The notes below the pieces were generated by a model. That model was not told the DNA's origin, searched no databases, and saw only the letters and a list, made by a program, of their open reading frames with translations. From the NCBI GenBank assembly GCA_043801965.1, contig JAZDLN010000012.1:11115-75114 (forward strand): a stretch of DNA of 64,000 nt. Direction: 5' to 3'. The translations under genes and the position numbers were made by a program. The stretch comes from Candidatus Falkowbacteria bacterium. GTDB lineage: Bacteria; Patescibacteriota; Patescibacteriia; Patescibacteriales; UBA12075. Each line of letters starts with the position of its first letter. Position 1 is the first letter of the stretch. Positions 6,973 to 63,895 of this stretch are shown one piece after another.

Positions 6973-8034
6973 ATGAAAATGGAAGGTAAAAAATTAAAAT
7001 GGCCCTTGGTGGGCAATGAGCATATTACGGAGTATCTGGAGCAATGCATCGCCCATAATAACATAGGGGGCTCTTATATTTTTTACGGTCCGCCTGATCT
7101 GGGAAAGTCTACGGCCGCGGTTTATTTCGCCCAGACCCTGCTTTGCCAGAACTATGACAAAGAGGGGACGGAATTGCCCTGCCGGACATGCCCTTCCTGC
7201 CGGTATTTTTCGGGCAAAAAAAGCGCCGAAGAAAACGCCGTTTCGACCGGTGAAACGCACGGCGATTGCCACATAATCAGAAAAGAAGACGATAAAAAGA
7301 ACATATCAATAGAGCTCGTCCGGGAGTTTATCAGGATATTGGGCTTAAGTTCTTTCCTGGGGGAGTACAAAGTGGGCATTATCCGCGACGCCGAAAGCTT
7401 AAGCCTGGAAGCGTCCAACGCGCTCTTAAAAACCCTTGAGGAGCCCAAGCGCAAGGTAGTGATAATTCTCGTGACCTCTTATCTTGACGCTTTGCCGCAG
7501 ACCATAGTCTCCCGCAGCCAGATATTGCGCTTCCATCCCGTAAAAGCCGATATTATCTACGATTATCTTATAGGCGCGCATAAAGCTTCCCGCGGCGAAG
7601 CGAAAAAATATTCCCGTTTAAGCCTGGGCCGCCCCGCTTTGGCCGTAAAATTCCTTGAGGACGAGGAATGGCGCGAACGATATCGCGACCGGGTGGGGGT
7701 TTTTTTAAAATTTTTCCGGCAGGATATAAACGAGAGATTCGTTGCCGTCGAAGATCTTGTCGGCAAGAAAGCCGTTGGGATGGAAGCGGCCGGAATGGTC
7801 GCGTCCATACTTTCGGCCTGGCAGGGGGTAATCCGGGATTTTATGCTTATCCAGCTGGGATTTAGTAACCTTATCCGGAATGAGGACAGGAGCGGGGAAT
7901 TAACCGCCCTAAGGAACGCCGTCACCCGGGATAAGATAATAAACCTTAATCGGGCGATCAGCCGGGGGGAGGCGAATTTGCGGGCGAACGTCAATCCGAA
8001 ACTGGTGCTTGAGGACATCGCCATTAGTATTTAG
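6973..8034 (+). CDS. holB: DNA polymerase III delta-prime subunit
   Basis: P-loop-like GPPDLGKST, zinc module CRTCPSCRY, then SNALLKTLEEP..VIILVTS..LPQTIVSRSQILRFHP. Confidence 0.85.
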   Translation: MKMEGKKLKWPLVGNEHITEYLEQCIAHNNIGGSYIFYGPPDLGKSTAAVYFAQTLLCQNYDKEGTELPCRTCPSCRYFSGKKSAEENAVSTGETHGDCHIIRKEDDKKNISIELVREFIRILGLSSFLGEYKVGIIRDAESLSLEASNALLKTLEEPKRKVVIILVTSYLDALPQTIVSRSQILRFHPVKADIIYDYLIGAHKASRGEAKKYSRLSLGRPALAVKFLEDEEWRERYRDRVGVFLKFFRQDINERFVAVEDLVGKKAVGMEAAGMVASILSAWQGVIRDFMLIQLGFSNLIRNEDRSGELTALRNAVTRDKIINLNRAISRGEANLRANVNPKLVLEDIAISI

Positions 8035-8088
8035 TATTTAGTATTAAGTATATAGTATTAAGCGAATTAGTCGCGGATGCTTAATACT
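8026..8088. repeat. word-repeat hairpin spacer (AGTATT words)
   Basis: Five tandem 7-mers (AGTATTT AGTATTT AGTATTA AGTATAT AGTATTA), then a 10-bp stem AGTATTAAGC/GCTTAATACT around a 15-nt loop containing CGCGGAT. It overlaps the holB stop. Confidence 0.8.
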
Positions 8089-8137
8089 TCCCAGGTATTT
8101 AACGCTCGTTTAATTTCTTTCAAATATAATCAATAAT

Positions 8138-9217
8138 ATGTTCAAAAAATTATCCATGCTTTTCGCCCTGCTGGTCCTGCCTGTCATAATTTCCGGTTGC
8201 CTGTTAAAAGTCGGGCCAAAAAATACGGCACAGAGCGGGACGGACGGCGGTGTTTTTAAATCGATCAATAAGGGCGCGGGCTGGCAGCAGAGAGCGCTTA
8301 TCCCGACGGTTTCCGGCAAGCCCCGCAGTTTCGCCGGCGTGAACGCGGCTTCCATGGCCATGGATCCGAGCGACCGATTGGCCGTTTATTTCGGCACGGA
8401 GGCTAACGGATTGGTTTATACTTATGACGGCGGAGCGAGCTGGCAGACGGCGGATACCCTCGTCAAAGGCACCGTTGCCGACGTGGCCGTCGATCCGAAG
8501 AATAAATGCGTTATTTATGCCGCGGTCGGGAACCGTCTCTATAAGTCGACGGATTGCAACCGGACCTGGAACCAGGCTTATTTCGACAACGACCTTATGG
8601 CCGTGGTGGATGCCGTGGCGATTGATCATTTTGACAGTAATAATATTTATATCGGCGTGAGCCGGGGCGATATCATAAAAAGCGCCAACGCCGGCGCGGA
8701 TTGGCAAACGGTCTACCGGGCCGGCAACCGCGTGCGGAAGATTCTGGTCGACCCCAACGACAGCCGTAATATCTACGTGGCGACCAACGTCAAAGGCGTG
8801 TTCCGCTCGCCGGACGCGGGCGCGAACTGGGCGGAGATGAAAAGCCTTATGGATACGGTCAAGGAACATAAATTAGGCACCGATATCAAGGATATGATCA
8901 TTACCCAGGATGAATCCAGGATGATATTCCTGGCGACTTTTTACGGCCTTCTTAGATCCAAAGACGGAGGCGAGACCTGGGAAAAGATCGAACTCATCCC
9001 CACGCAGAATAAGGCCGCCATTAACGCTTTGGCCGTTAATTCGAAATCCCCCCAGGAAATATATTACGTCACTAACACTACCTTTTACCGCTCGTCAGAC
9101 AGCGGGGCGAACTGGGCGACGGTAAAGCTGCCGACTTCCCGCGCCGGATGGAAGCTTCTCCTGGACCCGGAAGATCCGAATATTATATATATGGGGGTTA
9201 AGGGGTTAGCTAAATAA
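8138..9217 (+). CDS. BNR/Asp-box repeat beta-propeller lipoprotein (Ycf48/sialidase-like fold)
   Basis: Lipobox VIISGC. Seven S/TxDxGxxW-type Asp boxes are present (SINKGAGW, TYDGGASW, KSTDCNRTW, KSANAGADW, RSPDAGANW, RSKDGGETW, RSSDSGANW). Confidence 0.7.
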   Translation: MFKKLSMLFALLVLPVIISGCLLKVGPKNTAQSGTDGGVFKSINKGAGWQQRALIPTVSGKPRSFAGVNAASMAMDPSDRLAVYFGTEANGLVYTYDGGASWQTADTLVKGTVADVAVDPKNKCVIYAAVGNRLYKSTDCNRTWNQAYFDNDLMAVVDAVAIDHFDSNNIYIGVSRGDIIKSANAGADWQTVYRAGNRVRKILVDPNDSRNIYVATNVKGVFRSPDAGANWAEMKSLMDTVKEHKLGTDIKDMIITQDESRMIFLATFYGLLRSKDGGETWEKIELIPTQNKAAINALAVNSKSPQEIYYVTNTTFYRSSDSGANWATVKLPTSRAGWKLLLDPEDPNIIYMGVKGLAK

Positions 9218-9274
9218 TTTTTATCGTTTATTAATAATTTCAGTTTTTCGAATAACTTCATGGTTGCGCAAGGG

Positions 9275-62220: not shown

Positions 62221-62236
62221 ATATTTATACTACGAA

Positions 62237-63826
62237 ATGAAAAACGCAAATCTCAAAAGTCAAAGTTCGAATTTGCCCTTAATATTGATAATACTGGACG
62301 GTTGGGGCTTGGCTAAGCCGAATTTGGGCAACGCCGTTACCCTGGCCAAAACCCCCACCATGTCCGGACTTGTCAAAAAATACGCTAATACGAAATTACA
62401 CGCCCACGGGAAGTTCGTGGGCCTGCCCTTAAAACAGGTCGGCAACAGCGAGGCCGGCCACATGAATATCGGCGCGGGACGCCTGGTCGAGCAGGACGCG
62501 GTTCTTATCAGCCGCAGCATCAGCGACGGCACATTTTTCAAGAATTCGGCTTTTTTGGGGGCCGTGCGACACGTCCATAAAATGAATTCCAAATTCCATA
62601 TCATCGGCATGTTGTCCAACGGACAGAGCCCGCATTCTGATCCGGGACATTTAATAGCGCTTTTGCGCCTGCTTAAGGAAAGGGAGGTAAAGAATATTTA
62701 TCTGCATTTGATCACTGACGGCCGGGATTCTCCTAAATACGTTTCTTTGAGTCTCGTGGATGAATTAGAAAAAAAGCTTGCCAATAACGAACGGATAGCG
62801 ACTATCATGGGCCGGTTTTACGCCATGGACAGGAAAAAGTCATGGGACCGGACCGAAATGGCCTTCCGCGCCCTCGCGTACGGACAGGGCCGCGAAGCCA
62901 ATACCGCTCAGGAGGCCATCACGGAAGCTTATAACCGGGGCGAAAGCGACGAATACATAGAACCGTACATAGTCGGAAACTCGTATGGCGGCAACACGAG
63001 AATAGAAGACGGCGACAGCGTAGCTTTTATCAACCTGCGATCCGACAGGAGCCGGCAGCTGACAAAAGCTTTCGTGCAGGACGATTTCAATAAAATGAAC
63101 CCCGGTTCTTTCAAGCGCGGTAAAAAACTCAAGCATTTGTATTTCGTGGCCATGACGGATTTCGGTCCGGACCTGAACGAGATCCTGACCGCCTACCCTT
63201 CGATCGACCTGCACAACACCATACCGATGCAGTTGGCCGACTTAAAGCAGCTTTATATAGCCGAAACGGAAAAATACGCCCATATCACTTATTTTTTTAA
63301 CGGGGGGTATGCCGGAACGGTGGCGGGAGAGAAACACATCATGATCTCTTCGCCCGACGTCAGGTCATACGATGAAACCCCAGCCATGAGTTCGGCGTTG
63401 CTGGCTAAGGAGGTTATCAGGCATTTGAAACCGGGATCGGGCAAGAACTGGACGTATGATTTCTGCCTTTTGAATTTTGCCGCTCCCGACATGATCGGCC
63501 ACACAGGCAATCTTAAGGCCGGAATCGAATGCTGCGGCGAGGTAGACCGCTTATTGGCTAAGATAGTAAAAGCCTATCTGTCCGTAAATGGAACGGTTCT
63601 GATCACGGCCGATCACGGCAATATAGAAAATATGGTCAATCTGAAAACGGGCGAGATTCATACGGAACATACGACCAACCAGGTGCCCTTTATATTGGTC
63701 AATAAAAAAATCGGCAATAAAATAAAATTAAGGCAAAACGGCGCACTCGGCGATATCGGACCGACCATATTGGAATTGCTGGGCAGAAAAAAGCCGAGCG
63801 AGATGAGCGGCAAGAGCCTTATTTAG
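62237..63826 (+). CDS. gpmI: 2,3-bisphosphoglycerate-independent phosphoglycerate mutase
   Basis: LIILDGWG, GNSEAGHMNIGAGR (phospho-Ser site), NFAAPDMIGHTG and ITADHGN. Confidence 0.95.
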   Translation: MKNANLKSQSSNLPLILIILDGWGLAKPNLGNAVTLAKTPTMSGLVKKYANTKLHAHGKFVGLPLKQVGNSEAGHMNIGAGRLVEQDAVLISRSISDGTFFKNSAFLGAVRHVHKMNSKFHIIGMLSNGQSPHSDPGHLIALLRLLKEREVKNIYLHLITDGRDSPKYVSLSLVDELEKKLANNERIATIMGRFYAMDRKKSWDRTEMAFRALAYGQGREANTAQEAITEAYNRGESDEYIEPYIVGNSYGGNTRIEDGDSVAFINLRSDRSRQLTKAFVQDDFNKMNPGSFKRGKKLKHLYFVAMTDFGPDLNEILTAYPSIDLHNTIPMQLADLKQLYIAETEKYAHITYFFNGGYAGTVAGEKHIMISSPDVRSYDETPAMSSALLAKEVIRHLKPGSGKNWTYDFCLLNFAAPDMIGHTGNLKAGIECCGEVDRLLAKIVKAYLSVNGTVLITADHGNIENMVNLKTGEIHTEHTTNQVPFILVNKKIGNKIKLRQNGALGDIGPTILELLGRKKPSEMSGKSLI

Positions 63827-63837
63827 ACATTGAGGTG

Positions 63838-63895
63838 TTAGGGCGTTAGGCGTTAGGCGGCCTAAAGCCTAAAACCCTAAAGCCTAAAACCCTAA
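63838..63895. repeat. word-repeat hairpin spacer (TTAGGC/TTAGGG vs GCCTAA/CCCTAA)
   Basis: Left arm TTAGGGCGTTAGGCGTTAGGC, right arm CCTAAAGCCTAAAACCCTAAAGCCTAAAACCCTAA. It ends 4 nt before the next ATG. Confidence 0.8.

Follow-up and report, generated by a model that had tools for sequence, protein, structure and literature searches.

The classical units of short tandemly repeated repetitive (STRR) sequences are CCCCAGT, TTGGTCA and CAACAGT. In filamentous cyanobacteria such repeats, usually 7 bp long, form hairpins between hupS and hupL, where an effect on transcript stability or translational coupling has been proposed (PMC2670836). According to the summary of Mrazek 2007 in PMC4679880, no long simple repeat is as abundant in prokaryotes as the heptamer, for which an origin by polymerase slippage has been put forward. 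In marine Beggiatoaceae, TAACTGA direct repeats are found directly upstream of start codons, and many genes have no Shine-Dalgarno (SD) sequence (PMC4679880). Another class of repeat-bounded element is the intervening sequence (IVS) of 23S rRNA. In Coxiella burnetii the IVS carries an S23p (PF05635) open reading frame (ORF) in the loop of a 28-bp stem of terminal inverted repeats. Upstream of this decaying ORF, GACAGAT heptamers are repeated in tandem in a strain-dependent copy number, and the stem is cut in vitro by recombinant RNase III, as mapped by RACE (PMC4990558). Insertions in the rRNA of bacteria of the candidate phyla radiation (CPR) sometimes encode a PF05635 protein as well (PMC11270868). 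Here we describe intergenic hairpins in a stretch of 64,000 nucleotides from a Candidatus Falkowbacteria bacterium (Patescibacteriota; contig JAZDLN010000012.1, positions 11,115 to 75,114), which we call the window. Many of its spacers are built from short words that are repeated in tandem on one side and as reverse complements on the other, and we refer to these as word hairpins.

The STRR heptamer hairpin is the closest known analogue. Both are tandem 7-bp intergenic units that can fold into a hairpin between co-transcribed cistrons, as in the hupS-hupL spacer, and cyanobacterial heptamer arrays also occur in inverted pairs around PF05635 genes. The window belongs to a different phylum and its words have no sequence homology to the classical STRR units; its spacers have words of their own rather than a few genome-wide heptamers (STRR1-3 of Nostocales), and word hairpins take up a large share of the operon spacers in a genome of the ~1-Mb class. 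With the 23S IVSs (Coxiella, Leptospira and Salmonella types) the window elements share terminal inverted repeats that form a long stem, and heptamer arms with strain-to-strain variation in copy number (in Coxiella, and here in a 14-nt unit of the strains L161 and L162), and a PF05635 cassette occupies orthologous spacers in relatives of the window. Unlike IVSs, they are located between protein-coding cistrons and not in rRNA helices, they have no ORF, and RNase III excision, which was seen for the Coxiella IVS, is put forward here by analogy. The TAACTGA arrays of Beggiatoaceae and the long simple sequence repeats (LSSR) of Mrazek et al. 2007 are likewise heptamer arrays upstream of starts in SD-poor genomes with a proposed origin by slippage, but those arrays consist of one dominant heptamer in direct repeats only (1/170 inverted) and are predicted not to fold. 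The word hairpins are best described as STRR-like heptamer hairpins or IVS-type stems, here ORF-less and between CPR cistrons.

An earlier reading of the window from its letters alone (the sequence-only reading) had not recognised these spacers as a described repeat family. This holds for Patescibacteria, where a literature search of incomplete coverage found no description of such hairpins. It does not hold more widely, since STRR hairpins between co-transcribed cistrons have been described with the same proposed roles (PMC2670836), and heptamers are the most frequent of the long simple repeats in prokaryotes (Mrazek 2007, cited in PMC4679880). We consider the chances to be even that the word hairpins are ORF-less members of an IVS-type class of spacer element, in which two inverted arrays of ~7-nt words fold within the polycistronic transcript.

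Word hairpins in the spacers of the window

Core genes in the window are nearly all on the + strand, most of them without an SD sequence and with AU-rich leaders. Tandem Repeats Finder (TRF) reports period 7 at 14 sites (8024, 9275, 9330, 32834, 34198, 34463, 34513, 39420, 44694, 44755, 50606, 50727, 63833 and 63860), and the word length of 6-12 nt given by the sequence-only reading was too loose, as the words are mainly 7 nt long. The elements are as follows.

8024..8088 (+): array of five AGTATTT units overlapping the holB stop codon (TRF period 7, score 58), with a short hairpin AGTATTAAGC / GCTTAATACT
9242..9386 (+): nested hairpin upstream of frr; outer arms TTCGAATAAC / GTTATTCGAA, inner arms (9275-9356) of AGTATTT words and their reverse complement around a GC-rich apex; whole-spacer fold -64.2 kcal/mol, z -8.4
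32833..32894 (+): one-armed TCAAT-type array (AATTTTCAAT, TATCAAT; TRF period 7) filling the hrcA-grpE spacer and ending 2 nt before the grpE ATG
33536..33635 (+): AT-rich hairpin right after the grpE stop (33536-33597), then a TTAAAAA array; TRF period 7/8, also found by the paired-array detector described below
34198..34293 (+): one-armed arrays downstream of hsp20, TTTAGGC x4 (34198-34224) and AAATTACGAATGA x2 (34260-34293); TTAGGCTTTAGGG here is the reverse complement of 63875-63887, and the ATTACGA words are partly kept in the related locus L001
34456..34534 (+): AGTATTA array followed by direct GCGTTAT repeats that the 20-nt palindrome CCTGCCTGCCGGCAGGCAGG (34494-34513) breaks up; ends ~10 nt before the likely dnaK start (ATG 34544)
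38115..38214 (+): ATGCGAA-type word hairpin that fills the DUF3467-dnaJ spacer, starting 1 nt past the stop and ending 6 nt short of the ATG; member of a dispersed family with terminal inverted repeats ATAATGCGAA / TTCGCATTAT
39312..39449 (+): TCAAT / ATTGA word hairpin in the spacer after dnaJ, reaching to within 6 nt of the next ATG
44691..44787 (+): CGCATAA / GCGTTAC word hairpin filling the spacer between an ABC ATPase and an ABC permease gene (TRF period 7, 95% matches)
50547..50804 (+): nested element in the pfkB-ACS spacer; outer arms GTAACGCATAAA (50547-50559) and TTTACGCGTTACGCG (50790-50804) of TAACGC-type words, inner hairpin (50604-50757) of AATTTTCAAT / ATTGAAAATT
52761..52845 (+): hairpin between ACS and murJ, of ACAAAT / TTCGTGA words with units of ~8-20 nt
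63838..63895 (+): TTAGGCG / GCCTAAA word hairpin between two iPGM-family genes

The sequence-only reading had named eight hairpins, and all of them fold. Folded as RNA and compared with 200 dinucleotide-preserving shuffles each, four were matched by no shuffle: 9275-9356 (-40.7 kcal/mol, z -9.9), 38115-38214 (-44.6 kcal/mol, z -8.4), 39324-39449 (-35.8 kcal/mol, z -5.2) and 52761-52845 (-27.2 kcal/mol, z -4.1). For the remaining four, between one and four of the 200 shuffles were as stable, namely two for 44691-44787 (-43.9 kcal/mol, z -3.7), one for 50606-50755 (-30.2 kcal/mol, z -3.4), four for 8026-8088 (z -2.7) and two for 63838-63895 (z -2.3). The arrays that had been called one-armed are indeed not hairpins (z +1.6 at 32833, z -0.6 at 34201). 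When whole spacers are folded, 15 of the 39 in the window reach z <= -3.5, some of which hold other kinds of repeat. The hairpins are therefore confirmed as an observation, and the structural description was right: tandem words and their reverse complements form long stems, 20-60 bp in length, between co-directional and mostly SD-less genes.

The claim of a vocabulary shared across unlinked spacers also stands in the main. Every quoted word position is exact; all eight copies of AATTTTCAAT in the 64 kb fall within the two spacers named for it, and TTAGGCTTTAGGG has one forward copy (34213) and one reverse-complement copy (63875). Spacers share 86 12-mers, where a third-order Markov null gives 34.7 +/- 10.2 with a maximum of 65 in 200 trials. 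CGCGGAT has to be dropped as a shared word, because its 22 copies in the window lie mostly in genes. Sequences of the hairpins nevertheless differ from spacer to spacer, and each word family is limited to two or three spacers of the window. Other details needed correction. The hairpin fills its spacer from stop to start at 38115, at 44691 and, if the outer arms are counted, at 50547-50804, but not in the other cases; two elements (9242-9386 and 50547-50804) are nested and longer than first described; and a more GC-rich loop is found in five of the eight hairpins but not in three. GC content is mostly 0.22-0.39, with two hairpins near 0.5, and a T-run is lacking after most of the AT-rich stems. 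They are neither REP (repetitive extragenic) palindromes nor canonical terminators; sites with a GC stem and a T-run lie elsewhere and do not overlap word hairpins.

It is worth noting that the longest dnaK ORF starts at ATG 34523, inside the GCGTTAT array, while the conserved N-terminus starts at ATG 34544, so that word arrays can mislead start-codon calls. The palindrome CCTGCCTGCCGGCAGGCAGG within this array has a variant at 60720-60741, in the spacer 60686-60963, and a near-identical one sits within a GATTT-word array of an unrelated CPR contig (L169, ~640-661), which it interrupts. The palindrome resembles the small dispersed repeats that insert into Nostoc heptamer arrays, a likeness that we do not use as evidence.

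Word hairpins and PF05635 cassettes in related genomes

The DnaJ protein of the window shares 95% identity with its counterpart in Candidatus Falkowbacteria RIFOXYA2_FULL_47_19 (locus L001), after which identity drops to ~65% in other Falkowbacteria and Patescibacteria; the ACS protein of the window has an identical match in NCBI MFH0891515.1, which comes from a Falkowbacteria metagenome-assembled genome (MAG). A metagenome scan for relatives found none nearer to the window than L001, which served as the sister lineage together with the strains L161/L162 and, for the ACS region, L192-L196. For a census we used 145 non-redundant Patescibacteria loci (2.0 Mb), all around dnaJ, and a detector that requires a tandem array of non-trivial units and its reverse complement in tandem within 200 nt. 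This gave 82 word hairpins in 51 of the 145 loci; period 7 is involved in 62. Of the 82, 72 are intergenic, although called genes take up 86% of the sequence and non-genic DNA only 14%. Flanking genes are co-directional in 56 cases, divergent in 6 and convergent in 3. The 3' end of the hairpin precedes the next start codon by a median of 12.5 nt, with 6-11 nt the most frequent distance, and the 5' end lies a median of 18 nt after the stop, often within 10 nt; median occupancy of the spacer is 59%. In most of the closer genomes a hairpin of some kind occupies the spacer directly upstream of dnaJ. Among the tandem periods in these loci, 7 is the most frequent with 389 arrays, followed by 8 (255), 10 (189) and 11 (147). 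Most hairpins have private word sets, and 150 canonical heptamers occur among 362 arrays with no single class-defining motif. A restricted vocabulary read by one protein was considered and rejected for the clade, because the vocabulary is too broad; within a genome, families do recur.

In several relatives the spacers hold a PF05635 gene between word arms. As an example, the DUF3467-dnaJ spacer of L001 does not have the hairpin of the window but a PF05635 ORF of 117 aa (9611-9964, E 4.7e-15) between inverted word arrays, of which the left one is GATTTTCGATTGCC x2 and the right one TTCGAAAATCGTAAATCGAAAATC. In L167, a PF05635 cassette lies before dnaJ and another after it, at exactly the positions of the ORF-less window hairpins 38115-38214 and 39312-39449. 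In L003 a decayed PF05635 gene (…QILRSGTLIGANVEEAR, then a stop) lies between arms of ATTACGA words, and the same words build two ORF-less hairpins nearby, while L012 has a C-terminal PF05635 remnant with one arm only. In L172 and L169 the order is tmRNA, a PF05635 gene between an arm and its inverted partner, tRNA-Leu, an ORF-less hairpin of the same words, and tRNA-Gly. Outside Patescibacteria, a Bacteroidetes MAG has a PF05635 gene between nuoD and nuoH with ATTGCGG / CCGCAAT arrays. A tblastn search against plasmids matched PF05635 mainly in Nostoc and other cyanobacteria, flanked by inverted pairs of heptamer arrays, such as (AATTCGC)x4 … (GCGAATT)x4 in N. punctiforme pNPUN02 and (TAATTCG)x4.7 in Dolichospermum. 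With thresholds of at least 14 for the ungapped inverted-repeat score and at least 0.7 for lag-7 self-identity, inverted heptamer arrays flank 16 of 22 PF05635 genes (from Cyanobacteriota, Chloroflexota, Bacteroidota, Spirochaetota and Patescibacteria) compared with 5 of 1756 control genes (0.3%). Two of these five controls proved to be PF05635 genes themselves, one of which had been missed by sequence search. The association of PF05635 with inverted heptamer arrays thus appears to span phyla and deserves a census; as a general rule it was not found in the literature searched, with incomplete coverage.

PF05635 genes are also often found inside defence-type operons (L179, L184, L188, L191, L187 and L189, which are plasmids of cyanobacteria and Chloroflexota), where they lie between a DUF1156 protein and a Swt1-HEPN protein, between a helicase-related protein and an N6-methylase, or beside cas1, cas2 or MmeI. 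Two small ORFs after dnaJ in the window (39456-39815 and 39866-40228) were considered as divergent PF05635 genes and rejected.

The words grow and shrink by replication slippage. L161 and L162, strains of a sister population, are 99.89% identical over 20,354 nt, and their sole indel is one 14-nt unit, GATTTTCGATTGCC, present in two copies or one in the hairpin arm of the cassette. The strains L192-L196 are essentially identical in the ACS region and show no indels there. On a longer time scale, whole hairpins are replaced fast between lineages that are ~90% identical, and new ones nest inside old ones. Between the window and L001, coding DNA is 88-93% identical and the BLAST alignment breaks at spacers. 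The spacer between the ABC ATPase and permease genes has the unrelated words TCTAAAT / TTTAGGA in L001 (z -4.3), and the grpE-hsp20, dnaJ-upstream and dnaJ-downstream spacers are wholly different. The sister lineage has no long hairpin in its 51-nt dnaJ-downstream spacer or in its pfkB-ACS spacer (z +0.5); in the latter, the outer arms of the window element are kept in L193, and the inner hairpin of 150 nt is present in the window only. Some hairpins are dispersed. One in L003 exists in two copies ~1 kb apart plus a half copy, and the ATAATGCGAA...TTCGCATTAT family has four copies in three genomes (window 38115, two L011 loci, and L026), each ending 4-5 nt before TATG. At these four members no consistent flanking direct repeat was found that could be a target-site duplication, with one possible TAAC. 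For most hairpins, no second copy was detected in the sequence examined.

Where hairpins persist, their stems are conserved. Two were chosen as still alignable, each in one sequence pair: 52761-52845 is 92% identical to L193, with substitutions concentrated at unpaired positions, and 63838-63895 is 96% identical to L193. Divergence is 11/154 (7.1%) in the stems, 18/86 (21%) in unpaired spacer and 262/1100 (23.8%) at four-fold degenerate sites of five neighbouring genes (stem vs four-fold p = 3.7e-7, stem vs unpaired p = 0.003). Stem positions of persisting hairpins evolve about three times more slowly than neutral sites, and the stems of these two conserved hairpins are under purifying selection. 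No double-sided changes were seen in them, so that arm-to-arm conversion does not explain the low rate.

Probable processing stems and the alternatives

The hairpins are most likely RNase III-type processing stems, a view that rests on analogy, because the same architecture flanks genes of the PF05635 IVS protein in many phyla. The stem would be an RNase III substrate like those of the experimentally studied rRNA IVSs: stems of at least 20 bp are substrates of the enzyme, and the only homologous architecture that has been put to the test is cut by RNase III. The enzyme would either remove the insert from the RNA or separate the cistrons. Such processing may let the elements be tolerated in essential operons and between stable-RNA genes, and it would place selection on pairing rather than on sequence, leaving the elements freely swappable. 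ORF-less hairpins may be related to the PF05635 cassettes as decayed or non-autonomous derivatives, or as sites that those genes occupy. Of the functions offered by the sequence-only reading (RNase III processing sites, 3'-end stabilisers, translational insulators), the first is thus the best supported, through the PF05635-flanking arrays and the Coxiella stem; the constrained stems of two conserved hairpins speak for it as well. No strand-specific G-U signature was found. A role in coupling or insulating SD-less cistrons is compatible with RNase III processing.

Several observations weigh against reading the hairpins as ORF-less IVS-type processing stems. The window has no PF05635 gene or remnant by tblastn and profile search, hairpin loops included. 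In the 2 Mb of relatives, 82 ORF-less hairpins stand against two intact and two decayed cassettes; with hairpins so far in excess, descent from cassettes is not established. The evidence for constraint comes from two hairpins selected for alignability, and these two, in one pair each, show no compensatory double substitutions, so the covariation of arms that the sequence-only reading had proposed as a check did not appear. Word hairpins fold about equally well in sense and antisense (34 vs 22, p = 0.18; G-U pairs 112 vs 115), which gives no RNA-strand-specific signature, and their arms are almost purely Watson-Crick. Structured co-directional spacers as a whole lean modestly towards the sense strand (159 vs 102, p = 1.6e-5), for which an excess of G over C partly accounts. 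RNase III cleavage in this organism is itself an argument from analogy. No rnc match was found in 2.5 Mb of loci with an E. coli Rnc query, a negative that is uninformative because all loci examined were centred on dnaJ. Some arrays, finally, are one-armed and cannot be processing stems.

A wider version of the same idea is that PF05635 genes, whose product is an Avd-like four-helix-bundle protein, and ORF-less heptamer hairpins form one widespread class, represented in Patescibacteria, Cyanobacteria, Bacteroidota, Chloroflexota, spirochaetes and Coxiella. Its members would colonise any co-transcribed spacer, whether in an rRNA helix, next to tRNA or tmRNA genes or between cistrons, and would be tolerated because RNase III of the host removes them from the RNA. 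The protein would recognise the arrays and promote the spread or maintenance of the arms, and the classical cyanobacterial STRR repeats and the CPR hairpins would be the non-autonomous footprint. We regard this as rather unlikely.

Mutational processes alone could also be behind the hairpins. Slippage would make the heptamers and intrastrand template switching would invert them, with no function or mobility involved, and the products would persist as a small genome with reduced repair keeps its palindromes. Slippage was seen directly in L161/L162, and among prokaryotes at large no long simple repeat is commoner than the heptamer (PMC4679880). The breadth of the vocabulary (150 canonical heptamers in 362 arrays), the rapid turnover, the existence of one-armed arrays and the almost pure Watson-Crick pairing without strand bias all fit such debris. 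The constraint on the stems contradicts a neutral origin pure and simple, since retained stems diverge by 7% compared with 24% at neutral sites and have none of the double-sided changes expected from arm-to-arm conversion. Families with conserved termini that recur at unlinked loci and in different genomes, the tight placement relative to start codons and the specific association with PF05635 are not expected from debris either, and we find it unlikely as a full explanation.

The placement would suit a purely translational role, in which the stem brings stop and start together, hides spurious starts and leaves the true AU-rich start open, with no need of RNase III. Most core genes are SD-less, 3' ends of hairpins cluster 6-11 nt before starts and 5' ends are often within 10 nt of the stop, and pairing is under selection; the same role was proposed for cyanobacterial STRR hairpins (PMC2670836). 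The median occupancy of 59% is less easily reconciled with this, and many hairpins lie far from the stop codon. The same elements also occur between tRNA and tmRNA genes, where translation is irrelevant, and sister spacers manage without a long hairpin (the 51-nt spacer downstream of dnaJ, and pfkB-ACS at z +0.5). Coupling or insulation as the sole function is quite unlikely.

A more mobile alternative would make the hairpins REPIN- or MITE-like (miniature inverted-repeat transposable elements), that is, non-autonomous elements moved as single-stranded DNA by a Y1 (HUH) transposase. The window has a candidate: the gene at 15384-16112 (+) matches the NCBIfam model of the REP-associated tyrosine transposase (RAYT), NF047646, at E 2e-13 and has an HUH motif (NHFHGI) and an RNYYEH motif, although its 50 bits are below the cut-off of 80 bits. 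Like REP, BIME and REPIN sequences, the word hairpins are intergenic, palindromic, dispersed and transcribed in operons, and families that share terminal inverted repeats are scattered both inside single genomes and across genomes. REP and REPIN sequences, however, are short, GC-rich and near-identical, have hundreds of copies and flank their RAYT, whereas the word hairpins have AT-rich arms of tandem words and diverse copies, mostly with private word sets, and lack the REP hallmarks of a short GC-rich palindrome and a conserved 5' tetranucleotide. None flanks the RAYT-like gene, which lies 22 nt after secA and overlaps the next gene. This absence and the diversity of the copies leave a RAYT-driven model unsupported. 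MITE-type hairpins (Neisseria Correia, enterobacterial ERIC, Rickettsia RPE) have terminal inverted repeats, lie beside genes and are co-transcribed, and the word hairpins resemble them in this, with termini conserved between copies in some families; Correia stems are reported RNase III targets. MITEs have a fixed consensus, target-site duplications and no internal tandem-word structure; the word hairpins differ in that no consistent target-site duplication is found at the four family members. Mobility of this kind is decidedly improbable here.

Intrinsic terminators or attenuators of an unusual type without a U-tract are very improbable: the stems are stable and lie downstream of stops, with a T-rich stretch after 52761-52845, but they sit inside tight operons (ABC ATPase-permease, hrcA-grpE-dnaK-dnaJ), convergent genes flank only 3 of 65 classified hairpins, and canonical GC-stem/T-run sites are found in other spacers of the + strand (12337, 22482, 29448, 29997 and 54835), none overlapping a word hairpin, so that canonical terminators are a poor fit.

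Other features of the window and wider meaning

The window runs through holB, frr, an M50 protease gene, secA, secDF, proS, mreBCD and PBP2, then hrcA-grpE-hsp20-dnaK, DUF3467-dnaJ, an ABC transporter, acs, murJ, pgk, eno and iPGM. An Rfam scan against 4227 families gave no match at the gathering threshold, and Rfam and tRNA scans found no rRNA or tRNA genes. A perfect GGAGG precedes hsp20 and several small or accessory ORFs, in contrast to the mostly SD-less core genes (start regions surveyed include 33701, 29050, 29607, 17427, 16796-17218(-) and 42031-43074(-)). From its start regions, the genome seems to have two modes of translation initiation.

Repeats other than word hairpins are also present. 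The RAYT-like gene is split by a low-complexity insert (15681-15829) of 15-nt and 18-nt tandem repeats (GAPNN / APT[AT]FR). A palindromic element of ~100 nt without tandem-word structure occurs twice, at 5418-5514 and 34318-34429, with the sequence TTTTGTCATTTCGACCG[GA]AGGGAGAAATCTTTAATAC … GTATTA.AGATCTCTC…GATGACAAAA, and similar GTCATTC…GAATGAC palindromes are found in the dnaJ-upstream spacer of L004 and L007. Distinct from the AT-rich word hairpins is a GC-rich dispersed hairpin repeat of the type CCCTCTCC… / …GGAGAGGG (for example CCCCTCTCCCGCGCGAAGCGGGGGAGAGGG), located at the following sites, where spacer z is -3.7 to -5.5.

430-480: GC-rich CCCTCTCC/GGAGAGGG repeat
36470-36620: the same repeat
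37770-37801: the same repeat
41383-41440: the same repeat

A small gene of the DUF559 family (Vsr-like endonuclease fold) at 58-408 is directly followed by a GC-rich hairpin and may be another selfish small gene in a spacer. Compared with L001 and L193, the window has three specific insertions.

29474-30050: 120-aa ORF with a strong SD (29607-29969)
36456-37699: 350-aa TPR protein, with GC-rich repeats before it
56680-60960: 1190-aa beta-helix/lipase-like protein, then a 135-aa ORF

SecD (18520-20598) is fused to two PPIC-type peptidyl-prolyl isomerase domains, and secD is separated from secF by an inserted inositol monophosphatase gene. GrpE has had its N-terminal domain swapped between ~90% identical lineages (window 32897-33538, L162 5683-6558), giving DUF1653-GrpE in the window and NUDIX-GrpE in the sister lineage, and the breakpoint of the swap adjoins the one-armed TCAAT array.

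For annotation, the word spacers have direct effects: they break alignments of ~90% identical genomes, and their words overlap stop codons and the starts of longest ORFs. For the biology of CPR bacteria, whose genomes are tiny and have little non-coding DNA, it is of interest that a sizeable share of this DNA is made up of one kind of hairpin with fast turnover and with its pairing under selection. This points to a general post-transcriptional layer (operon processing, differential stability, coupling) in these uncultured and largely SD-less bacteria. The hairpins also join three literatures, those on cyanobacterial STRR repeats, on rRNA intervening sequences and on the PF05635 family. The Coxiella IVS paper (PMC4990558) describes a single case of a link between PF05635 and such arrays. 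If that link holds genome-wide, the nature of STRRs and the role of the IVS protein become testable, and if PF05635 genes and ORF-less hairpins did prove to be one class, a protein family that has lacked a function since the 1990s would gain one, and the origin of the STRR repeats would be explained.

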